Source of the DNA: Escherichia coli
Lineage (GTDB): Bacteria; Pseudomonadota; Gammaproteobacteria; Enterobacterales; Enterobacteriaceae
Direction: 5' to 3' (one strand)
Assembly (NCBI RefSeq): GCF_013122565.1
Contig: NZ_CP053258.1
DNA: 64,000 nt
The notes beneath the pieces were generated by a model, which saw nothing but the letters and a program-made list of their open reading frames with translations, was not told the DNA's origin and made no database searches. Positions 1-41,243 of the stretch are shown here, one piece after another; positions within the stretch are counted from its first letter, which is position 1, and the number at the start of each line of letters is the position of its first letter. The translations under genes and the position numbers were made by a program.

Positions 1-109
1 AATGAAAGCCGAAGCGCTGGCGATGGGCTTTACCCATGCTGCATGCGGTCCGTTTGTCCGCTCTTCTTACCACGCCGATTTGCAGGCGAAAGGGATGGAA
101 GTTAAGTAA
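1..109 (+). CDS. lipA: lipoyl synthase, C-terminal fragment (gene starts upstream of window)
   Basis: Frame beginning at nt 2 translates to [35 protein letters not shown] then stop at 107-109; recognised as the LipA C-terminus. Confidence 0.85.
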
Positions 110-136
110 TCCTGTAATAATTACTTACATCTGTCT

Positions 137-170
137 GATAAAAAACCCGCTTTTTGAAGCGGGTTTTTTG
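137..170. terminator. bidirectional intrinsic terminator between convergent lipA and tatE
   Basis: aaaaaacccgcttt-ttga-agcgggtttttt: GC stem flanked by an A-run and a T-run (coordinates approximate). Confidence 0.7.
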
Positions 171-209
171 TATCGAACAAGATATTGAGGGAGCGTCCTG
201 CTCGCCACG

Positions 210-413
210 TCACTCTTTATGAGAGAGCTTTTCAGCCTGAAGATCAACGTCTGCGCCTTTTTTCGCCGCAGCATCATCATCATTCATCGCCTTCTTGAAC
301 CCTTTAATGGCCGCTCCAAGGTCTCCGCCCAGCGTACGTAACTTCTTAGTCCCAAACAGCAGAACGACCAGCGCCGCAACTACCAGCAGTTTGGTAATAC
401 TAATCTCACCCAT
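210..413 (-). CDS. tatE: Sec-independent translocase component TatE (67 aa)
   Basis: Internal ATG of track ORF 210..449; [41 protein letters not shown] is a TatA/E-family sequence with one N-terminal TM helix. Confidence 0.9.
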
Positions 414-541
414 AGATACCTTCTTGACATATAACCGGCAACAGAACACGCCTTAAAAACCAGAGAATATTAACGGTCATTCGACGCGCGCACACAATAG
501 CAATCTGTAACAAGGTGAATCAAGCGCCGAGTAAAAAAACA

Positions 542-1330
542 TCATAATAATTGCGGCGGCGCAAAGCGACGGTTGTTTAAGACGGGCAGTTGCGCGCGCA
601 CCTGACGCACACGTTCGGGCGTCACTTCCGCCATAATGAGTGCAGGCATTTCTGACGCTGCCGCAATGGTGACGCCAAAGGGATCTATAATCCGGCTTTG
701 CCCGATATTTTTGTTCCCGCACTCCCCCGCCGCCACCATATAACAGGTGGTATCCAGCGCACGAGCGGCAAGCAACGTTGACCAGTGATGCTCTTTGAGC
801 GGCCCGCGAACCCAGGCGGCAGGAAGTACCAGGATTTCAGCTCCCTGTAATGCCTGTGCCAGCGCCAGCTCTGGAAAGCGTAAGTCATAACAGGTCATCA
901 GACCGACCTTCATCCCTTCCACCTCCAGTAATGGAGCTATTTCATTACCAGCATCAACATGGCGTGATTCCTGAATGGCAAATGCATCATAGAGATGAAG
1001 TTTGGCATAACGGGCAACGATGTTTCCTGCCTGTAGCGCCACCAGCATATTCCATGCGCGCCCCGGCGTTGAAGGAACATGAATCGTCAGAATTGTCGTC
1101 ATCATGTTACGTTTACTTTCTCGCCGTAAACGTCCGAGGAATTCGCCTTCCAGCAGCTGTGCTGATTTAACCGATAGATCTGCATCATGATCATCGCGCG
1201 CCAGCAATGCTTCCGGCAGGACAAACAGCGATACGTCGTTTTCCGCCGCCTGCGCCATCAACGAGGCACAAATCTCAGCGTTCTTTTCCCACACAGATGT
1301 AACAGCAAACTGTCCTGCAGCAACCAACAT
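542..1330 (-). CDS. ybeM: C-N hydrolase (nitrilase superfamily, Nit1-like amidase), apparently intact
   Basis: Track ORF 542..1336 (264 aa) with no internal stop; start placed at third codon to give 262 aa; position between tatE and crcB matches ybeM. Confidence 0.8.
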
Positions 1331-1422
1331 TGCCACCTCCTGTCAGAGTCGTAAAATTCGCCAACGACGATTATTCGGCGTTACACTTATCACTCATACA
1401 AATCAAATAGCAGGATTTTGCA

Positions 1423-1806
1423 GTGTTACAACTTCTTTTAGCAGTTTTTATTGGCGGTGGTACGGGAAGCGTGGCGAGATGGCTGTTAAGTATGCGATTT
1501 AACCCGCTGCATCAGGCGATTCCGTTGGGGACGCTGGCTGCAAACCTGATTGGGGCATTCATCATAGGAATGGGATTCGCCTGGTTCAGCAGGATGACAA
1601 ACATTGATCCCGTGTGGAAAGTATTAATCACCACCGGATTTTGTGGCGGTCTAACAACCTTCTCAACATTTTCGGCAGAAGTGGTGTTTTTGTTACAAGA
1701 GGGTCGCTTTGGCTGGGCATTACTGAACGTTTTCGTCAACCTTCTGGGGTCTTTTGCCATGACCGCACTGGCATTCTGGCTGTTTTCGGCCTCAACCGCA
1801 CACTAA
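1423..1806 (+). CDS. crcB: fluoride ion channel CrcB/FluC (127 aa)
   Basis: Track ORF 127 aa, hydrophobic four-helix pattern with GGxTTFSTF motif; start codon appears to be GTG. Confidence 0.92.
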
Positions 1807-1809
1807 AGA

Positions 1810-1845
1810 CCAAAAAAAACCCGCTGATTAAGCGGGTTTTGAATT
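1810..1845. terminator. bidirectional intrinsic terminator between convergent crcB and cspE
   Basis: aaaaaaaacccgct-gatta-agcgggtttt hairpin with flanking A and T runs. Confidence 0.7.
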
Positions 1846-1859
1846 CTTGCTGACGTATC

Positions 1860-2069
1860 TTACAGAGCGATTACGTTTGCAGCAGAAGGGCCTTTGGCAC
1901 CGTTAGTGATTTCGAACTCTACACGCTGACCTTCAGCAAGAGTTTTAAAACCATTAGTCTGGATTGCAGAGAAGTGTACGAACACGTCTTTGCTGCCGTC
2001 TTCCGGAGTAATGAAACCGAATCCTTTGGACTCATTAAACCACTTAACGTTACCTTTAATCTTAGACAT
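1860..2069 (-). CDS. cspE: cold-shock-domain protein CspE (69 aa)
   Basis: Internal start of track ORF 1860..2153; [37 protein letters not shown] contains the RNP1/RNP2 cold-shock motifs. Confidence 0.95.
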
Positions 2070-2243
2070 CAAAATTACCTTTACATGAAAAATAGACACA
2101 AATGCTGTGTCGGTTACCAGTACACCAATTGTGGTACGCTTTGTCCAGTGCAACTTTACTAAAAAGTGATAAAAGTCGCGTTATTTTTGATGTTAATTAT
2201 TTTACTCATTGATTTTAAAGAGTTTACTAAAATTTCATTTGTC

Positions 2244-2804
2244 TCAAAACTGAAAGCGCATCCAGGCAAAGTACACATTGCCATTGTTGTAGGTACCCGG
2301 AATGTAGGTCATCTGAAAAGTCACTGGACCATAACCCACGGAGGCCAATGGCAGTAGAACCGGGAGAGGGATGTAATTCCAGTTATCGCGCGCCGTTACG
2401 CCGGCGGTGAATCCCAGACCTAAATGAAAATTTTCATCCGCCAGCGGTCGCCAGGTACTTTCCCATCCGTATCCGGCAATCGGTTCCCATTTGTTCCACG
2501 AGTCCTTAAATGCCATGGCATACAGGCCATGCCAGTTTCCTTTTTCATCCCAACGCGACTGACCAAAACCGCCACCCCACGGTCGCTCGTTATAGCGATC
2601 GGTTTTTTCTTTGTCGTAAGCGAAACGTGCATGCCAGGTGATGGCAGGAATATATAAATCATAATGTTCAGGCTGTTGCCAGGTTTGTGCAATATTTTCT
2701 CTAAACGTTGTCATCCACTCATCTGCGTTAGCAAAAACTTTACCAACGCTGATTAACTGAATAAAAACAAAGGAAAATATAGCGACATATTTACTCACGT
2801 TCAT
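2244..2804 (-). CDS. pagP: lipid A palmitoyltransferase PagP (186 aa)
   Basis: Internal ATG of track ORF 2244..2828 ([25 protein letters not shown] signal peptide); outer-membrane beta-barrel pattern; plus-strand cat at 2802-2804 confirms the ATG. Confidence 0.92.
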
Positions 2805-3284
2805 TTGTGACCATAAAACATTTATCAAAAATCTACTACTAGCATAGCAAAGCTACAATTAACATAACCTTAATAGCTCCAACATAAAGAATAATCTGAA
2901 TAGCTGCTCTATTTATTTCCGCTTGTTTAAGTTAAATATTTCCGCGCATCGATTTAAAATGATACATCGTTTTCTGCGATGGGAATAGTCATAAAAGAAA
3001 AAGCAAGTTATTACTGATAACAAAATGCAATCAAGAAAAAAATGACTTATTTTTTAATAAGATACAAAAAATTATCTTAACAAAGAATATATTATATATC
3101 GTCAACCCACGCCCATTATAGATTATTTTTTGAGCACACAACCGCAGCTAACACCATTGCAATTAACAAATTTGCATCAATCTACCATCAATTTACACAC
3201 ATTATTATGTGATAATTGCCAACTGTTAAATATGCGTTTTGTTATCTATGTATAAAAACAGCAACTTCAATGTCTTAATGGCAG

Positions 3285-3310
3285 TTTTTCTTGATTTTAA
3301 TCAGCATTCA
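3285..3310 (+). promoter_or_regulatory. FNR-like site candidate upstream of dcuC
   Basis: ttgattttaatcag resembles TTGAT-N4-ATCAA with one mismatch, about 90-100 bp upstream of the dcuC ATG. Confidence 0.3.
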
Positions 3311-3393
3311 CCGCCAATTTATTGGGCATATTTTTTCCTTAAGTTTTAGGAATTTTTTATTATTTACTTTGGGGCCTGGAGACAGGAAAAATT

Positions 3394-4779
3394 ATGCTGA
3401 CATTCATTGAACTCCTTATTGGGGTTGTGGTTATTGTGGGTGTAGCTCGCTACATCATTAAAGGGTATTCCGCCACTGGTGTGTTATTTGTCGGTGGCCT
3501 GTTATTGCTGATTATCAGTGCCATTATGGGGCACAAAGTGTTACCGTCCAGCCAGGCTTCAACAGGCTACAGCGCCACGGATATCGTTGAATACGTTAAA
3601 ATATTGCTAATGAGCCGCGGCGGCGACCTCGGCATGATGATTATGATGCTGTGTGGCTTTGCCGCTTACATGACCCATATCGGCGCGAATGATATGGTGG
3701 TCAAGCTGGCGTCAAAACCATTGCAGTATATTAACTCCCCTTACCTGCTGATGATTGCCGCCTATTTTGTTGCCTGTCTGATGTCTTTGGCCGTCTCTTC
3801 CGCAACCGGTCTGGGCGTTTTGCTGATGGCTACTCTGTTTCCGGTGATGGTAAACGTTGGTATCAGTCGTGGCGCAGCAGCTGCCATTTGTGCCTCCCCG
3901 GCGGCGATTATTCTCGCACCGACTTCAGGGGATGTGGTGCTGGCGGCACAGGCTTCCGAAATGTCGCTGATTGACTTCGCCTTCAAAACGACGCTGCCTA
4001 TCTCAATTGCTGCAATTATCGGCATGGCGATCGCCCACTTCTTCTGGCAACGTTATCTGGATAAAAAAGAGCACATTTCTCATGAAATGTTAGATGTCAG
4101 TGAAATCACCACCACTGCTCCTGCGTTTTATGCCATTTTGCCGTTCACGCCGATCATCGGTGTACTGATTTTTGACGGTAAATGGGGTCCGCAATTACAC
4201 ATCATCACTATTCTGGTGATTTGTATGCTGATTGCCTCCATTCTGGAGTTTCTCCGCAGCTTTAATACCCAGAAAGTTTTCTCTGGTCTGGAAGTGGCTT
4301 ATCGCGGGATGGCAGATGCGTTTGCTAACGTGGTGATGCTGCTGGTTGCCGCTGGGGTATTCGCTCAGGGGCTTAGCACCATCGGCTTTATTCAAAGTCT
4401 GATTTCTATCGCTACCTCGTTTGGTTCGGCGAGTATCATCCTGATGCTGGTATTGGTGATTCTGACAATGCTGGCGGCAGTCACGACCGGTTCAGGCAAT
4501 GCGCCGTTTTATGCGTTTGTTGAGATGATCCCGAAACTGGCGCACTCTTCCGGCATTAACCCGGCGTATTTGACTATCCCGATGCTGCAGGCGTCAAACC
4601 TGGGCCGTACCCTTTCGCCCGTTTCTGGCGTAGTCGTTGCGGTTGCCGGGATGGCGAAAATCTCACCATTTGAAGTCGTAAAACGCACCTCGGTGCCGGT
4701 GCTTGTTGGGCTGGTGATTGTTATCGTTGCTACAGAGCTGATGGTGCCAGGAACGGCAGCAGCGGTCACAGGCAAGTAA
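3394..4779 (+). CDS. dcuC: anaerobic C4-dicarboxylate transporter DcuC (461 aa)
   Basis: Track ORF 461 aa, polytopic membrane protein; ATG at 3394 preceded by a ggagacagg SD-like sequence. Confidence 0.95.
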   Translation: MLTFIELLIGVVVIVGVARYIIKGYSATGVLFVGGLLLLIISAIMGHKVLPSSQASTGYSATDIVEYVKILLMSRGGDLGMMIMMLCGFAAYMTHIGANDMVVKLASKPLQYINSPYLLMIAAYFVACLMSLAVSSATGLGVLLMATLFPVMVNVGISRGAAAAICASPAAIILAPTSGDVVLAAQASEMSLIDFAFKTTLPISIAAIIGMAIAHFFWQRYLDKKEHISHEMLDVSEITTTAPAFYAILPFTPIIGVLIFDGKWGPQLHIITILVICMLIASILEFLRSFNTQKVFSGLEVAYRGMADAFANVVMLLVAAGVFAQGLSTIGFIQSLISIATSFGSASIILMLVLVILTMLAAVTTGSGNAPFYAFVEMIPKLAHSSGINPAYLTIPMLQASNLGRTLSPVSGVVVAVAGMAKISPFEVVKRTSVPVLVGLVIVIVATELMVPGTAAAVTGK

Positions 4780-4784
4780 ATAGT

Positions 4785-4816
4785 AATGCCGGAGGCAAGT
4801 TTCCTCCGGCTTTATC
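4785..4816. terminator. hairpin terminator in the 40-bp gap between convergent dcuC and dpiA
   Basis: gccggagg-caagttt-cctccggc followed by tttat. Confidence 0.65.
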
Positions 4817-4819
4817 ATG

Positions 4820-5500
4820 TCACCCACTGTGGTATATGCGTTGCGGTCTGCCAACTTTGCCGTGAACAATTTCAGCAATAATCAGATGGCGGCTGGCGCA
4901 ATATTCAAGATAACGCCTGGCAGTGGTGCGGCTGATGGTCAATGCCTGCGCCACCGTTTCTGCCGTATGTTGCACACCAGGCTCTTTGAACAATTTTCGC
5001 ACCGCGTTTAGCGTCAAGGGGTCAATGCCGGTCGGCAGTTCGTCTTTGGGTTCACCACGAGCATAGGCATTAAACATCTCATCAATTTGCTTCTGGCTGG
5101 CGCTATCAATACTTTCCAGCATATGTTTACGCTGGCGGAAACGGGTTAGCGTTTGCCCCAGCCGTTCATAGGCAATTGGCTTGATGAGATAATCAAATAC
5201 ACCACAACGTACGGCTTCAGACACCGTTTCCATATCGCTGGCTGCAGTGGTAAACACCACGTCGCCGGGATAATGCGCCTGCACCAGTTCATGCAGTAAA
5301 TTAATCCCTCTACCGTCAGGAAGATAGTTATCGAGCAAGATTAGCCCCGGCTTAAAACGCTCGATCATCATTCGGGCCTGCGCCAGGTTTCCCGCCAGTA
5401 ATATCTGACTGAATCCGGGAATGTGACGAATATATTCCGCATGCATCTCTGCCAGCGGCGTTTCGTCCTCAACGATCAATAGGGTTAATGGAGCTGTCAT
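4820..5500 (-). CDS. dpiA: two-component response regulator DpiA/CitB (226 aa)
   Basis: Track ORF 226 aa with receiver domain (LIVEDE...D) and C-terminal HTH; first 10 codons overlap the 3' end of dpiB. Confidence 0.93.
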   Translation of the reverse strand: MTAPLTLLIVEDETPLAEMHAEYIRHIPGFSQILLAGNLAQARMMIERFKPGLILLDNYLPDGRGINLLHELVQAHYPGDVVFTTAASDMETVSEAVRCGVFDYLIKPIAYERLGQTLTRFRQRKHMLESIDSASQKQIDEMFNAYARGEPKDELPTGIDPLTLNAVRKLFKEPGVQHTAETVAQALTISRTTARRYLEYCASRHLIIAEIVHGKVGRPQRIYHSG

Positions 5501-7127
5501 TAGGTTTCACTTTCGGAATATAGATTGAAAATAAGGTACCGCAGGGATCATTATCTTCGAGAGTGATAACACCACCGCAGCGCGTTACGTAGCTGGCAAT
5601 CAAGTACAACCCAATGCCATGTTCACCGGGCTCGTCAGCACGCGTACTGACCCCCTGCTCAAATATTTTGTCTCGTAGAGACTCTGGAACGCCGCAGCCC
5701 TGATCGGCGACTTCAATCACCACATCATCGCCTTCATCGCTGAGGAATAATTCAACGATCTTGTTTCCTTCATCGCTACGCAGGCTGGCTTCGAAGGCGT
5801 TATCAAGTAAATTGCCCACAATGGCGGCAAACTCGGTGCTATCCAGTCCTGGCGGCAGTTGCGAAAGCTGGCTACCGGGGACGATGATCATTTTTAGCCC
5901 CAGTTCCCGGGCGCGCTGCACTTTACCAAAAAGCAGCCCCGCCACCTGGCGATCGGCAAACGCCTCGCGCAGGCTGTCAATAAGCTGTTGCTGTGCCTGA
6001 GACTCCCCCTGCACCATCGCCAGCACGCGATCATACTCTTTCATCTGCAACAGACCATTGAGCGTCGACATCCAATTGAGATGCTCGTGTCGCAATGTAC
6101 GAAGGCTCTCGACGTATTGTTTTATTTGCGTCAGTTGCGCATTGAGGGTGGAAATTTCGTCTTTACTACGAAAGCTGATAATGGCCCCCAGCAAATCATC
6201 ACCTGAACGAATAGCTTCCCGATTGGCAATAACGCTCAGACCGTTAAAGTTAGCCACCACATCCTGACGTTTTTCATCAATCTGTTCGGTAAAGAAATCG
6301 GCGGGCCTGACCACTTCAGCAATGGGTTTACCCAACCATTGCCGTCCGGGGGAACTCAGCCCCAGCATCTTTCTTGCGTTACGATTGATGGCGGTAATGT
6401 AACCGTGCGGATCCACCGCAATCAGCCCTTCATAAACCGAACTAAATAGCGCCTCTTGCTGACGGACCACGCGTGCGATTTGCTTTGGCTCCATGCCCAT
6501 CATCTGCCGACGGATATGCGCGGCCAGGAACCACGACAGCAACATCAGAATCCCTAACAGCACGACAAACACACCTGCCATTGGTAATAAAAACTCAGCC
6601 CGCCAGCTATCGATTTTACTCACCAGGTAGCCAATCGACACCACGCCGATGACTTTTCCATCGTCATCAAAAATTGGCGTTTTGGCGCGCATCGCCATGC
6701 CCATTGACCCTTTCCCGGTAATGAAGTAGCTCTCCCCTTTCTCCAGCGCGCCCTGTTTGGTGAACTGCATAGGATGACCAATTTTCTCCGGATTAGGATG
6801 GTAAAGGCGGATCGAGTGCCGGTCGCCAATCACCACATAATCAAAATCGGTATCTCTTTGTAATTTGTTAGCGATGGTCGCCAGCCGTTTGTAGTCACGC
6901 GTTTTTACTGCGCTGATGATACTGTCATTAGAAGCAATAATTTTCGCCTGATTCATTGCCATGTCGCGTACATGAAGCGTTAAATAGTCCTCAAAACTGG
7001 CCGTAAAATATTGCGCCAGGGCTGCAATGACAAATATTGAGAACACCAGAATCAGCAAAAAGATACGCAGCGGAAATGCCAGTCTTTGGAAAAATGCAAA
7101 CTGTTTATTCTCGTTAAGCTGCAACAT
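5469..7127 (-). CDS. dpiB: sensor histidine kinase DpiB/CitA (552 aa)
   Basis: Track ORF 5469..7187 trimmed to internal Met (MLQLNENKQFAFFQRLAF...) to give 552 aa; periplasmic sensor plus HATPase_c motifs. Confidence 0.9.
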   Translation of the reverse strand: MLQLNENKQFAFFQRLAFPLRIFLLILVFSIFVIAALAQYFTASFEDYLTLHVRDMAMNQAKIIASNDSIISAVKTRDYKRLATIANKLQRDTDFDYVVIGDRHSIRLYHPNPEKIGHPMQFTKQGALEKGESYFITGKGSMGMAMRAKTPIFDDDGKVIGVVSIGYLVSKIDSWRAEFLLPMAGVFVVLLGILMLLSWFLAAHIRRQMMGMEPKQIARVVRQQEALFSSVYEGLIAVDPHGYITAINRNARKMLGLSSPGRQWLGKPIAEVVRPADFFTEQIDEKRQDVVANFNGLSVIANREAIRSGDDLLGAIISFRSKDEISTLNAQLTQIKQYVESLRTLRHEHLNWMSTLNGLLQMKEYDRVLAMVQGESQAQQQLIDSLREAFADRQVAGLLFGKVQRARELGLKMIIVPGSQLSQLPPGLDSTEFAAIVGNLLDNAFEASLRSDEGNKIVELFLSDEGDDVVIEVADQGCGVPESLRDKIFEQGVSTRADEPGEHGIGLYLIASYVTRCGGVITLEDNDPCGTLFSIYIPKVKPNDSSINPIDR

Positions 7128-7507
7128 TGTTTTCCTTGCGGGTTGTCCCGAACCTCTTTGACGGATGTAATTAAAATGTTGAATCAAAATACATAGATAT
7201 TAATTATGATCGTGGCAAATTTTATTCATTAAATCAATTAAATCACTTAAACCTGCGGGTCATTTCGCAATTACATTAATTAAAAAACTTAAAACCATTA
7301 AATAAATAAAAAACCACTAACTCTATGTGAAATAAATCAAAATTTCACGCCGAAATACTCCTTAGGATGTATAGCGAAAGGAGAAAAAGATATACCTCGA
7401 TCGCCCTCCCTTTCTCCCAAGTGAAAATAAAAGGTTATCAGTTTGCAACATTGAACAACATTCGTTGCAAATCGATAACAATATGCACCTTCAGGATACT
7501 ATTTATT

Positions 7508-8566
7508 ATGTTCGGCAATGATATTTTCACCCGCGTAAAACGTTCAGAAAATAAAAAAATGGCGGAAATCGCCCAATTCCTGCATGAAAATGATTTGAGC
7601 GTTGACACCACAGTCGAAGTATTTATTACCGTAACCCGCGATGAAAAGCTTATCGCGTGCGGTGGAATTGCCGGAAATATTATTAAATGCGTTGCTATCA
7701 GTGAATCCGTTCGCGGTGAAGGACTGGCGCTAACATTAGCCACTGAATTGATAAACCTCGCCTATGAGCGGCACAGCACGCATCTGTTTATTTATACCAA
7801 AACCGAATACGAGGCGCTGTTCCGCCAGTGCGGTTTTTCCACGCTGACCAGCGTACCTGGCGTGATGGTGCTGATGGAAAACAGCGCCACGCGACTGAAA
7901 CGCTATGCCGAATCGCTGAAAAAATTTCGTCATCCAGGGAACAAGATTGGCTGCATTGTGATGAACGCCAATCCCTTTACGAATGGTCACCGTTATCTGA
8001 TTCAACAGGCTGCGGCACAGTGCGACTGGTTGCATCTGTTTTTAGTCAAAGAAGATTCTTCACGCTTCCCCTATGAAGACCGGCTGGATCTGGTGTTAAA
8101 AGGCACCGCCGATATTCCACGTCTGACTGTGCATCGCGGCTCCGAATACATCATCTCCCGCGCTACGTTCCCTTGCTACTTCATTAAAGAACAGAGCGTC
8201 ATTAACCATTGTTACACCGAAATTGATCTGAAGATTTTCCGTCAGTACCTCGCTCCCGCGCTGGGTGTAACTCACCGCTTTGTCGGTACTGAACCCTTTT
8301 GTCGCGTTACCGCCCAGTACAACCAGGATATGCGCTACTGGCTGGAAACGCCGACTATCTCCGCACCGCCCATCGAACTGGTTGAAATTGAGCGGCTGCG
8401 TTACCAGGAGATGCCGATATCCGCTTCCCGGGTACGTCAACTGCTGGCGAAAAACGATCTCACGGCTATCGCGCCGCTGGTCCCTGCAGTCACGCTGCAT
8501 TATTTGCAGAACCTGCTTGAGCACTCCCGCCAGGACGCGGCAGCTCGTCAAAAGACCCCCGCATGA
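7508..8566 (+). CDS. citC: [citrate (pro-3S)-lyase] ligase CitC (352 aa)
   Basis: Internal ATG (MFGNDIFTRVKRSENKKMAEI...) of track ORF 7367..8566; heads the citCDEFXG operon. Confidence 0.9.
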   Translation: MFGNDIFTRVKRSENKKMAEIAQFLHENDLSVDTTVEVFITVTRDEKLIACGGIAGNIIKCVAISESVRGEGLALTLATELINLAYERHSTHLFIYTKTEYEALFRQCGFSTLTSVPGVMVLMENSATRLKRYAESLKKFRHPGNKIGCIVMNANPFTNGHRYLIQQAAAQCDWLHLFLVKEDSSRFPYEDRLDLVLKGTADIPRLTVHRGSEYIISRATFPCYFIKEQSVINHCYTEIDLKIFRQYLAPALGVTHRFVGTEPFCRVTAQYNQDMRYWLETPTISAPPIELVEIERLRYQEMPISASRVRQLLAKNDLTAIAPLVPAVTLHYLQNLLEHSRQDAAARQKTPA

Positions 8567-8580
8567 GAAACAGGTGAAAA

Positions 8581-8877
8581 ATGAAAATAAACCAGCCCGC
8601 CGTTGCAGGCACCCTTGAGTCTGGGGATGTGATGATACGCATCGCCCCACTCGATACGCAGGATATCGACCTGCAAATCAACAGCAGCGTTGAGAAACAG
8701 TTTGGCGATGCAATTCGCACCACCATTCTGGACGTTCTCGCCCGCTACAACGTGCGCGGCGTACAGCTGAATGTCGATGACAAAGGCGCACTGGACTGCA
8801 TTTTACGTGCACGACTGGAAGCCCTGCTGGCACGCGCCAGCGGTATCCCGGCTCTGCCATGGGAGGATTGCCAATGA
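8581..8877 (+). CDS. citD: citrate lyase acyl carrier protein, gamma subunit (98 aa)
   Basis: Track ORF 98 aa ([24 protein letters not shown]...). Confidence 0.93.
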
Positions 8878-9782
8878 TTTCCGCTTCGCTGCAACAACGT
8901 AAAACTCGCACCCGCCGCAGCATGTTGTTTGTGCCTGGTGCCAATGCCGCGATGGTCAGCAACTCCTTCATCTACCCGGCTGATGCCCTGATGTTTGACC
9001 TCGAAGACTCCGTGGCATTACGTGAAAAAGACACCGCCCGCCGCATGGTTTATCACGCGCTGCAACATCCGCTGTATCGCGATATTGAAACCATTGTGCG
9101 TGTCAACGCGCTGGATTCCGAATGGGGTGTTAACGACCTGGAAGCCGTCGTTCGCGGTGGTGCGGACGTTGTGCGTCTGCCGAAAACCGATACCGCTCAG
9201 GATGTTCTGGATATCGAAAAAGAGATCCTGCGTATCGAAAAAGCCTGTGGTCGTGAACCCGGCAGCACCGGCCTGCTGGCGGCGATTGAATCTCCGCTGG
9301 GCATTACCCGCGCAGTGGAAATCGCTCACGCTTCCGAGCGTTTGATCGGTATCGCCCTCGGTGCAGAAGACTATGTGCGCAACCTGCGTACAGAACGCTC
9401 CCCGGAAGGAACTGAACTGCTGTTCGCTCGCTGCTCCATTTTGCAGGCCGCGCGCTCTGCGGGTATTCAGGCGTTCGATACCGTCTATTCCGACGCTAAC
9501 AACGAAGCCGGATTCCTGCAAGAAGCCGCCCACATCAAACAGCTGGGATTTGACGGCAAATCGCTGATCAACCCGCGTCAGATTGATCTGCTGCACAACC
9601 TCTACGCACCAACCCAGAAAGAAGTGGATCACGCCCGCCGCGTCGTAGAAGCCGCTGAAGCCGCCGCTCGCGAAGGCCTCGGCGTGGTTTCCCTGAACGG
9701 CAAGATGGTGGACGGTCCGGTTATCGATCGCGCCCGTCTGGTGCTCTCCCGTGCAGAACTTTCCGGCATCCGCGAAGAATAA
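8874..9782 (+). CDS. citE: citrate lyase beta subunit / citryl-CoA lyase (302 aa)
   Basis: Internal Met ([27 protein letters not shown]) of track ORF 8859..9782; 4-nt overlap with citD. Confidence 0.92.
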
Positions 9783-11328: not shown

Positions 11329-12733
<1,405 letters not shown>

Positions 12734-41029: not shown

Positions 41030-41194
41030 GGGTATAACCTGAAAATGAGTCCAATAGGGGAAAATCTCCACGGCGCTCACTTTACCAGTTGGTGAGAATT
41101 ATCCGAAGCTGAAGTTTGTAAATTCCTTCCACTGAATGAAACATTCACTCTATTTAAGAGAAATGACCAACAAACATATAAATTAAATAAATGA

Positions 41195-41229
41195 TTAACC
41201 CATAATTATTTCCTGTAATTATGGGTTAA
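41195..41229. repeat. perfect 14-bp-arm inverted repeat 15 nt downstream of the entF stop
   Basis: ttaacccataatta-tttcctg-taattatgggttaa; followed on the minus strand by an AT-rich tract. Confidence 0.6.
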
Positions 41230-41243
41230 TAGATAATATTAAT

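Follow-up and report, generated by a model that had tools for sequence, protein, structure and literature searches.

The region described here is the spacer between the divergent genes pagP (crcA) and dcuC of Escherichia coli, positions 2805–3393 of the window, that is, of the whole 64,000-nucleotide stretch of DNA that was analysed (Table 1). The PagP protein is 99.5% identical to K-12 NP_415155 over residues 1–186. A first-pass annotation had reported a 565-bp AT-rich gap at this place; its existence, its A+T richness, its A/T runs and its rank by length in the window were borne out, while its left limit had to be moved. The pagP open reading frame as listed reaches a TTG at 2828, which is the origin of the earlier limit at 2829. 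In the K-12 annotation, PagP has 186 aa and starts with the ATG at 2804; the spacer accordingly begins at 2805 and measures 589 bp (588 bp for the K-12 counterpart). Its GC content is 29.4%, as compared with 51.9% in the window. When the window is ranked by GC in 500-bp segments, each of the five lowest overlaps the spacer and the neighbouring 5' end of pagP, and no longer stretch of the window is free of any open reading frame of at least 120 aa. Eleven A or T runs of at least five nucleotides were counted, compared to 4.0 ± 1.9 in mononucleotide shuffles, and this number was attained by 3 of 1000 shuffles. Five open reading frames of 36–41 aa lie fully within the spacer, each TTG-initiated; they were dismissed as genes because of strain indels and the absence of conservation. 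A repeat or mobile-element origin of the spacer centre was also ruled out, since the spacer, including its centre, is single copy in E. coli genomes. Among relatives, spacer length varies (281 bp in K. pneumoniae, ~460 bp in Citrobacter, 403 bp in S. arizonae).

Table 1. Features of the pagP–dcuC spacer and its flanks (window positions).
Feature	Position	Strand	Description
Whole pagP–dcuC spacer	2805..3393		589 bp, 29% GC, A/T runs; within published K-12 H-NS-bound regions
pagP (crcA) CDS, 186 aa	2244..2804	-	True start is the ATG at 2804
dcuC CDS, 461 aa	3394..4779	+	100% protein identity to K-12 DcuC
Predicted pagP 5' leader	2805..2835	-	Predicted start ~2835, 6–7 nt downstream of the -10 hexamer
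pagP -10 hexamer TATGCT	2841..2846	-	Aligns with Salmonella pagP -10 TATTAT
PhoP box TATTAAggttaTGTTAA	2859..2875	-	Direct repeat, differing at three positions from TGTTTA-N5-TGTTTA; -10 hexamer 12 nt downstream
Conserved block AATC(T/A)GAA and second copy of 15-nt direct repeat	2886..2905		Column conservation; repeat search
Hypervariable island	2955..3141		Unalignable beyond Escherichia; E. coli haplotypes 14–20% apart
Candidate Ssr31-like transcript (unsupported)	2955..3229	-	Promoter-like site 3229..3201; weak terminator-like hairpin 2981..2965
Semi-conserved distal block ATTAACAA, then tandem 11-bp repeat CATCAATCTAC/CATCAATTTAC	3160..3196		Conservation; repeat D5
FNR box TTGATtttaATCAG	3291..3304	+	Pattern match, 9/10 consensus positions; 14 bp
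dcuC -10 hexamer CATATT	3327..3332	+	CACATT in most genera; within invariant block
Predicted dcuC 5' leader	3339..3393	+	Start ~3339 predicted from -41.5 geometry

At the dcuC end, the FNR-like "half-palindrome" of the first-pass annotation proved to be a real FNR site and a complete 14-bp box, ttgattttaatcag, 90–103 bp upstream of the dcuC ATG in the window. The FNR consensus TTGAT-N4-ATCAA is matched at 9 of 10 positions by TTGATTTTAATCAG. FNR-like matches with at most one mismatch number 6 in the window vs 2.5 expected, so that the single match is not significant alone; the box gains its weight from where it lies, from its conservation and from ChIP data in the literature. Of the 45 enterobacterial spacers examined, 43 have it, 99–113 nt upstream of the dcuC ATG in 42 and at -341 in one more, and S. 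arizonae carries a variant matching at 8 of 10 positions. Downstream lies an invariant block, TTTATTnGGCA(C/T)ATT at 3318–3333, with conservation of at least 90%. The distance from the start of the box to the CA(C/T)ATT hexamer is exactly 36 nt in all 43 sequences that carry the box; the 12 nt between box and hexamer vary freely, the distance itself being fixed. If CA(C/T)ATT is the -10 hexamer, this fixed distance gives class II geometry with the box centred at -41.5. The predicted dcuC leader contains a conserved block, GACAGGGGAAA, and the Shine-Dalgarno sequence AGGAA at 3384–3388.

Published K-12 occupancy data were compared with the window by converting U00096.2 coordinates to window positions, and the conversion was verified. 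In the study of Myers 2013 (PMC3688515), dcuC is among the operons directly activated by FNR, with an FNR ChIP-seq peak at 655298, and the predicted FNR site CTGATTAAAATCAA at 655281 carries a ChIP-seq peak. The box in the window is identical to this K-12 site. The only sigma70 peaks in the spacer are at 655235 and 655742 (Myers 2013), which map to ~3349 and ~2842, one at either end and none between, in agreement with the earlier proposal that both promoters lie within the spacer; the former is ~10 bp from the dcuC start predicted by the geometry above. The aerobic/anaerobic expression ratio was 0.05 for dcuC, a 20-fold anaerobic rise, and 0.29 for crcA (Myers 2013). The same study marked dcuC "TSS not in peak region", indicating that the start annotated at that time lay elsewhere.

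These data are consistent with a mechanism in which anaerobically active FNR would bind TTGATtttaATCAG, centred 41.5 bp upstream of a start at ~3339, and recruit RNA polymerase to the weak -10 element CATATT, which has no usable -35, to yield a transcript with a leader of ~55 nt. The arrangement resembles that of class II FNR promoters of E. coli, and specifically the K-12 dcuC site, with the same 9/10 box and fixed spacing to a -10-like hexamer; the K-12 site, identical in sequence, has both the ChIP-seq peak and FNR-dependent anaerobic induction. The final base of the window box is G, not A, and with the start placed as predicted nothing else material differs. An inverted repeat, 3326–3339/3384–3397, would pair the -10/start region with the Shine-Dalgarno sequence and ATG. 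It was put down to a T-run and an A-run that happen to be complementary, because its 5' arm lies upstream of the predicted start and the complementarity is lost in Citrobacter (alignment by eye).

At the pagP end, the pattern (T/G)GTTTA-N5-(T/G)GTTTA is matched with 3 mismatches by TATTAAGGTTATGTTAA, read from 2875 to 2859. AT-rich DNA yields many matches of this type (80 in the window vs 47 expected), and the weight of the PhoP box rests for that reason on cross-genus conservation and on published descriptions. The repeat (T/C)GTTAAG-N4-(T/C)ATT(A/C)A(G/A) is conserved across genera. The crcA PhoP box has been described as having three differences from the consensus. It has also been placed 32 bp from the transcription start, one helical turn nearer to it than in Salmonella (Harari et al. 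2010). For Salmonella pagP, the -10 element TATTAT has been assigned and the start site mapped by S1; the Citrobacter counterparts are TATAAT, TAAAAT and TACGAT. A pagP start at ~2835 fits the published 32-bp distance, and the pagP-end sigma70 peak of K-12 falls at the -10 hexamer. In the proposed mechanism, phospho-PhoP would bind the direct repeat TATTAAggttaTGTTAA, overlapping the -35 region 12 nt upstream of TATGCT, and activate a sigma70 promoter that would start at ~2835. E. coli crcA and Salmonella pagP (architecture IV, Zwir et al. 2012) have the same kind of direct-repeat PhoP box upstream of a weak -10 element, and the positions of box and hexamer are kept across genera. In E. coli, however, 12 nt separate the best box, which has three mismatches, from the -10 hexamer, vs 23 nt in Salmonella. 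Further upstream, columns 2893–2897 show 80–90% conservation among 44 sequences, and a direct repeat (D3) links 2864–2878 with 2891–2905. The block at 2886–2905 is a possible second PhoP half-site or RcsB-like box, which we regard as a lead only.

Very probably, then, this is a divergent pagP/dcuC regulatory region in which two compact promoters, one at either end, flank an AT-rich spacer that is H-NS-bound in K-12. The first-pass annotation had suggested that the surplus length serves as territory for nucleoid proteins, and the K-12 data bear this out. Anaerobic H-NS ChIP-chip regions at 654590–655558 and 655584–656283 (U00096.2; Myers 2013) cover the spacer apart from a 26-bp gap after conversion of the coordinates, and deletion of hns is published to raise pagP (pagP-lacZ) 18-fold in K-12. 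In Table S6 of Myers 2013, the final column reads "None" for the FNR site, although the site lies inside an H-NS region of Table S3. All occupancy data are from K-12, whose central 221 bp is only 86% identical to the window. Induction of pagP depends on SlyA, and RcsB and GadE have been reported as further inputs; the response to RcsB, GadE and SlyA is PhoP-independent. Three putative SlyA sites have been described (Chalabaev et al.). Even when up to 3 mismatches were allowed, no match to the SlyA consensus TTAGCAAGCTAA was found in the spacer. Similarly, the high-affinity H-NS motif TCGATAAATT was not enriched in the spacer; matches to it are at chance level across the window (58 vs 59.8 expected), and the spacer contains only two 2-mismatch matches, 2819–2828 and 3316–3325. 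The H-NS nucleation motif is not obligatory for H-NS binding.

The ~400 bp between the promoters (26–30% GC, with A/T runs) would be coated by H-NS together with the adjoining coding DNA, and this coating may keep pagP nearly silent. SlyA, RcsB and GadE, to judge from the published genetics, would relieve the silencing, and insertion sequences would be expected to act likewise. We infer that the spacer itself, beyond the promoter-proximal DNA, is needed for silencing. In natural strain 873.10 an IS1 and an IS3-family element are inserted in the spacer, and in kanamycin-evolved K-12 recurrent IS5 insertion in the spacer has been published. The locus resembles the H-NS-silenced, SlyA-countered regions of Salmonella (pagC, ugtL) and E. 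coli (hlyE, K5 capsule genes) in its low GC content and A/T runs and, from published K-12 data, in ChIP enrichment that extends into flanking genes, strong derepression when hns is mutated and induction that depends on SlyA. Unlike them, pagP is an ancestral core gene, not a horizontally acquired one, and neither an H-NS nucleation motif nor a SlyA consensus is detectable in the window allele.

One other conserved element was found upstream of the FNR site. The distal block consists of ATTAACAA at ~3160–3169 and the tandem 11-bp repeat at 3175–3196, with 70–90% column conservation in 44 sequences. Park et al. predicted an ArcA site in the dcuC/crcA spacer, and the block is possibly this site. 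Two simple promoters with no other conserved blocks was the picture that the first-pass annotation had named as speaking against its reading of the surplus length; this is mostly what we found, the distal block being the exception. The block also bears on whether further promoters, or an alternative long 5' UTR of pagP or dcuC, lie in the centre, with starts governed by EvgA, RcsB, GadE, ArcA or sigma54. Such starts could account for the remark of Myers 2013 on the dcuC start, for the published binding of sigma54 holoenzyme and NtrC to the spacer in genomic SELEX, for the predicted ArcA site and for the PhoP-independent inputs to pagP. However, the sigma70 ChIP-seq peaks listed are confined to one at each spacer end, the SELEX peak (655760) maps pagP-proximally rather than centrally, and the sigma54 element GG-N10-GC was not found by eye in the conserved blocks. 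Cappable-seq shows no start on the pagP strand, though with little power, pagP being silent under those conditions. Taken together, we consider central promoters quite unlikely. The conserved GGCAC block and the pagP end of the spacer had each been considered as a sigma54 -24/-12 element; both were rejected, as neither shows the GG-N10-GC spacing when the sequence is read.

The first-pass annotation had also suggested that the spacer may leave room for an unannotated small RNA, a suggestion that did not hold up. A specific form of it exists in the literature: Wang et al. 2016 predicted Ssr31 in S. flexneri 301 (pagP/dcuC, pagP strand, 295 nt) and found it RT-PCR-positive, and this "Yes" is the sole positive claim. 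In the window, such a transcript would run on the pagP strand from a promoter near 3229..3201 to the hairpin at 2981..2965. On the minus strand, a consensus scan did find a promoter-like TTAACA-17-AATAAT with a terminator-like hairpin correctly placed downstream of it, and sliding windows gave local fold z-scores of -2 to -3.7 around 2980–3100 on both strands. However, the 246-nt candidate as a whole folds no better than shuffles (z = -1.15), and the local scores stem from short AT-rich palindromes (folded as DNA, z = -1.4). The hairpin has only 5 bp and a poor T-tail, two positions of its 3' arm (2964 and 2966) are substituted in K-12, and promoter-like sites are rarer than chance (1 vs 4.3 expected). 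The stretch is moreover the least conserved of the spacer and the most diverse of the locus; strains differ in it by indels, and outside Escherichia it does not align. Rfam gave no hit with E < 1 in the spacer, and at a permissive threshold over 1800–3800 the spacer hits were at chance level only. No sigma70 ChIP-seq peak of K-12 lies between the two end promoters, and K-12 Cappable-seq, checked for this region on the plus strand of K-12 (the pagP strand), has no start there under conditions where pagP itself is silent. Neither pagP nor dcuC is mentioned in the SMRT-Cappable-seq supplements. RT-PCR does not distinguish a small RNA from pervasive or read-through transcription, and for Ssr31 neither Northern blotting nor RACE was reported. 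We regard a small RNA encoded by the centre as highly improbable. The one real Rfam hit in 1800–3800 was a cspA-type element on cspE.

The control of the spacer is already known in its main parts, FNR at dcuC and PhoP with H-NS/SlyA at pagP having been published, and the sequence of the window agrees. It is an ordinary regulatory region, and the present analysis adds little to it. Its use is as a worked example: for a long AT-rich enterobacterial gap, two compact promoters and a rapidly evolving spacer bound by H-NS are a better explanation than a concealed RNA gene. Only the haplotypes at the centre of the spacer seem to us worth following further.

The inner ~190 bp occurs in E. coli as discrete haplotypes that are uncoupled from the flanks. 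Across 5,375 genomes, the identity distributions of the island were multimodal, unlike those of the flank controls. Between O103 ML775 and O128:H27, 37 of the 47 differences fall within 2955–3141, and 0.6–0.9% of four-fold degenerate sites differ in the flanks. A mutational hot spot as the source of the central divergence was ruled out, because, in pairs that share a haplotype, the centre differs no more than four-fold sites do. No sequence-specific element of the inner segment is conserved between genera, and the segment evolves freely. An alternative is that the central ~400 bp is neutral AT-rich filler of the Escherichia lineage, with passive H-NS binding and all regulation in the ~100 bp beside each gene. 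Klebsiella and Raoultella manage with spacers of 281–307 bp in total, both promoter blocks kept; sequences of the centre cannot be aligned across genera and vary strongly among E. coli strains; IS insertions are tolerated in natural strains; and the H-NS and SlyA motifs are not enriched, all of which would suit filler. Against this, the 18-fold repression of pagP by H-NS in K-12 needs bound DNA near the promoter, and the enrichment spans the whole spacer. The repeated selection of IS5 insertions under kanamycin suggests that disruption of the spacer has a phenotype, the distal block is semi-conserved, and discrete deep haplotypes are not predicted by simple neutral drift. We therefore hold the filler explanation to be possible but doubtful, and prefer two compact promoters separated by an H-NS-bound silencing spacer.

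A more ambitious reading takes the island as an old recombining regulatory cassette, its 3–4 haplotypes (14–20% apart) maintained by balancing or diversifying selection and each setting its own degree of silencing by H-NS, or of relief from it, at pagP and possibly also at dcuC. We rate this as improbable. Were it true, lineages would differ in lipid A palmitoylation and host-peptide resistance, and an Ssr31-type small transcript specific to a haplotype could take part. Should the haplotypes alter how pagP is expressed, they would represent natural regulatory variation in a trait that bears on immune evasion and on resistance to antimicrobial peptides. In the switched or mosaic intergenic regions of E. 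coli, regulatory DNA is replaced by recombination with the flanking genes serving as homology. Like these, the spacer has discrete alleles that have diverged deeply and are distributed independently of the genes on either side. It differs from them in that its alleles are still alignable (80–86% identity) rather than unrelated in sequence, and in that the tract is short (~190 bp) and leaves both core promoters untouched.

The window carries the E. coli gene order lipA-tatE-ybeM-crcB-cspE-pagP-dcuC-dpiA-dpiB within positions 1–8000. At the ybeM position (542–1336, minus strand) lies an intact 264-aa ORF, annotated in other strains as a deaminated glutathione amidase of 262 aa. The first-pass annotation had placed an ORF-free, AT-rich region between the divergent pagP and dcuC genes at 2829–3393. 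The right limit stands, but the left one does not: full-length similarity to K-12 PagP puts the pagP start at ATG 2804, not at TTG 2828 as in the ORF list used there, and the spacer is therefore 2805–3393 (589 bp; 588 bp in K-12, with no RefSeq annotation within). Its character was confirmed: no other stretch of the window without an ORF of at least 120 aa is as long, its GC content is 29.4% (window, 51.9%), and it holds 11 A or T runs of at least 5 nt (4.0 ± 1.9 expected). Still more AT-rich are two short non-coding gaps, 7188–7366 (25.7% GC), the divergent dpiB-citC spacer, and 41081–41243 (27.0% GC). The pagP-dcuC spacer is a known regulatory region: its two promoters, FNR site and H-NS coverage have all been published.

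Features of the pagP-dcuC spacer and its flanking genes (window coordinates)
Feature	Position	Strand	Remarks
pagP	start ATG 2804	-	99.5% identity to K-12 PagP across all 186 residues
pagP -10-like hexamer TATGCT	2846..2841	-	12 nt after PhoP box
PhoP box TATTAAggttaTGTTAA	2875..2859	-	direct repeat, three differences from PhoP consensus
Distal block ATTAACAA	~3160-3169		semi-conserved across genera; ~130 bp upstream of FNR box
Tandem 11-bp direct repeat CATCAATCTAC/CATCAATTTAC	3175-3196		after distal block, in E. coli
FNR box TTGATtttaATCAG	3291-3304	+	9/10 consensus positions matched
dcuC	3394-4779	+	protein identical to K-12 DcuC

What had been read as an FNR-like half-palindrome upstream of dcuC is an FNR site, though a complete box rather than a half. 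A lone consensus match is not significant (6 in the window, 2.5 expected); the five others, each with one mismatch, lie at 12509, 20326, 22295, 33935 and 56966. Conservation was examined in pagP loci from 80 enterobacterial species, 43 of which had divergent pagP-dcuC with a usable dcuC start; with the window and K-12 these gave 45 spacers. The box was found in 43 of the 45: in 42 it lies 99–113 nt before the dcuC ATG, and in one Citrobacter amalonaticus strain, whose spacer is longer, at -341. A CA(C/T)ATT hexamer begins exactly 36 nt after the box start in all 43 box-bearing sequences, and the 12 nt separating box and hexamer are freely variable. If CA(C/T)ATT is taken as the -10 element, the centre of the box falls at -41.5, as is characteristic of class II FNR-activated promoters, and dcuC transcription would start near 3339 with a 55-nt leader containing a conserved Shine-Dalgarno block. 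Results published for K-12 are in agreement. In that strain dcuC is counted among the direct targets of FNR activation and has a ChIP-seq peak at 655298, a predicted site, CTGATTAAAATCAA, at 655281 (Table S6, with peak), a sigma70 peak under anaerobic conditions at 655235 (Table S1) and ~20-fold higher anaerobic expression (Table S12); it also carries the flag 'TSS not in peak region' (Myers et al., 2013). Once reverse-complemented, the K-12 site equals the box in the window, and the sigma70 peak converts to ~3349, which is 10 bp away from the predicted start (U00096.2 to U00096.3 offset of 778, checked against the FNR site itself). Segments 3326–3339 and 3384–3397 form a 14-nt inverted repeat with 93% complementarity, through which the dcuC -10/start region could base-pair with the Shine-Dalgarno sequence and ATG. 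Its 5' arm is located upstream of the start proposed above, and an alignment judged by eye showed no conservation of the repeat in Citrobacter.

At the other end, the PhoP repeat is kept from Escherichia to Klebsiella in the form (T/C)GTTAAG-N4-(T/C)ATT(A/C)A(G/A), at a constant distance across genera from the -10-like hexamer downstream. In Salmonella the place of TATGCT is taken by TATTAT, which has been assigned as the -10 of a pagP promoter whose start was mapped by S1. In the window, pagP would start at ~2835. The published PhoP box of E. coli crcA (pagP) likewise has three differences from consensus and lies 32 bp from the start, compared with 44 bp in Salmonella. A second K-12 sigma70 peak (655742, window ~2842) rises ~10-fold anaerobically, and none is listed for the K-12 spacer beyond the two end peaks (Myers et al., 2013). 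With one sigma70 peak at each end, the presumption that the spacer holds both promoters is borne out.

Spacer length is 281 bp in K. pneumoniae, 403 bp in S. arizonae, ~460 bp in Citrobacter and 558–589 bp in Escherichia, and only the two ends align across genera, with the semi-conserved distal block as sole exception. We suggest that 3160–3196 may be the ArcA site predicted within the spacer by Park et al. The first-pass annotation saw in the excess length room for nucleoid-protein binding, and for K-12 such room has indeed been documented: anaerobic H-NS ChIP-chip regions (654590–655558 and 655584–656283; Myers et al., 2013) span the whole spacer and extend over the first 600 bp of dcuC and almost the entire pagP gene, and hns deletion raises pagP-lacZ 18-fold (Chalabaev et al.). 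We conclude that the length is explained by lineage-specific, H-NS-bound DNA. Neither the H-NS high-affinity motif nor the SlyA consensus was found in the window's spacer allele; pagP induction in biofilm is SlyA-dependent (Chalabaev et al.). Further inputs to pagP are RcsB and GadE (Szczesny et al.), published YeiE binding lies downstream of the dcuC promoter, and sigma54 holoenzyme bound in vitro at what maps to the pagP-proximal end. Recurrent IS5 insertions into the K-12 spacer arose during evolution under kanamycin (PMC6307192), and natural isolate O18ac:H14 strain 873.10 (locus L090, 1747–3966) carries IS1 and an IS3-family element inside its own spacer, which fits, without proving, a spacer whose disruption relieves silencing.

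The suggestion that the spacer has room for an unannotated small RNA was followed up, and such an RNA was not supported. Ssr31 (295 nt, pagP strand of the S. flexneri pagP/dcuC gap) was RT-PCR-positive among 57 computationally predicted sRNAs, with neither a Northern blot nor RACE reported for it (Wang et al., 2016). Rfam gave no match in the spacer, the only real hit within 1800–3800 being RF01766 (cspA thermoregulator) on cspE and its leader (1812–2170, minus strand; 126 bits, gathering score 78). Consensus scans found one promoter-like site, on the minus strand (3229..3201), which is below chance, and a 5-bp hairpin with a poor T-tail (2981..2965), whose 3' arm carries substitutions in K-12. 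The 246-nt stretch between them folds at the level of shuffles (z = -1.15), local z-scores as low as -3.7 coming from short AT-rich palindromes. K-12 Cappable-seq showed no pagP-strand start in 653077–656393, with limited power because pagP itself was silent in that data set. An Ssr31-like RNA from the spacer centre is rated very improbable. In two strains the RefSeq locus-tag series misses one number between pagP and dcuC (RS18275 in EC1515, L002 3105–3694; RS03400 in O128:H27, L087 1766–2354), which suggests a gene call once made there and later withdrawn.

The remainder of the region being of low interest, only the inner ~190 bp (2955–3141) might repay further work. The window and K-12 are 98% identical over 6.6 kb, yet differ at 19 positions per 100 bp at 3000–3100. 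Pairwise diversity in a set of ten E. coli alleles was 0.123 at 2950–3150, a figure possibly inflated since they were taken from a ranking by central identity, compared with 0.063 (dcuC) and 0.099 (pagP) at four-fold degenerate sites and 0.020 in the dcuC promoter. The centre falls into 3–4 discrete haplotypes, 14–20% apart, and some carriers are almost identical in the genes on either side: O103 ML775 and O128:H27 90-9281 show 47 differences over 2.7 kb, 37 of them within 2955–3141, and differ at <1% of flanking four-fold sites. A mutational hot spot is unlikely as the source, because divergence of the centre between alleles of one haplotype does not exceed the four-fold rate, and a repeat element is ruled out by its single copy in E. 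coli genomes. Recombinational exchange of short intergenic alleles independently of their flanks is a known kind of phenomenon, and the island looks like such an allele.

Genomes matching each central allele type, by identity (central ~220 bp against 5,375 complete E. coli genomes)
Allele type	>=99%	95-99%	90-95%	80-90%
Window	0	22	473	4,881
K-12/O128	2,290	987	553	1,546
ST131	630	399	47	4,300
O103	115	341	49	4,871

These population counts are free of the selection bias. At ≥95% identity the K-12/O128, ST131 and O103 types account for 3,277, 1,029 and 456 genomes, with few intermediates between types, and in a search of 5,426 complete RefSeq E. coli genomes the window's own allele reached at most 95.5% identity. 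Equal-length flank controls matched at ≥95% in 5,386 of 5,405 genomes on the dcuC-proximal side, and on the pagP-proximal side in 4,369, with 1,012 at 90–95%.
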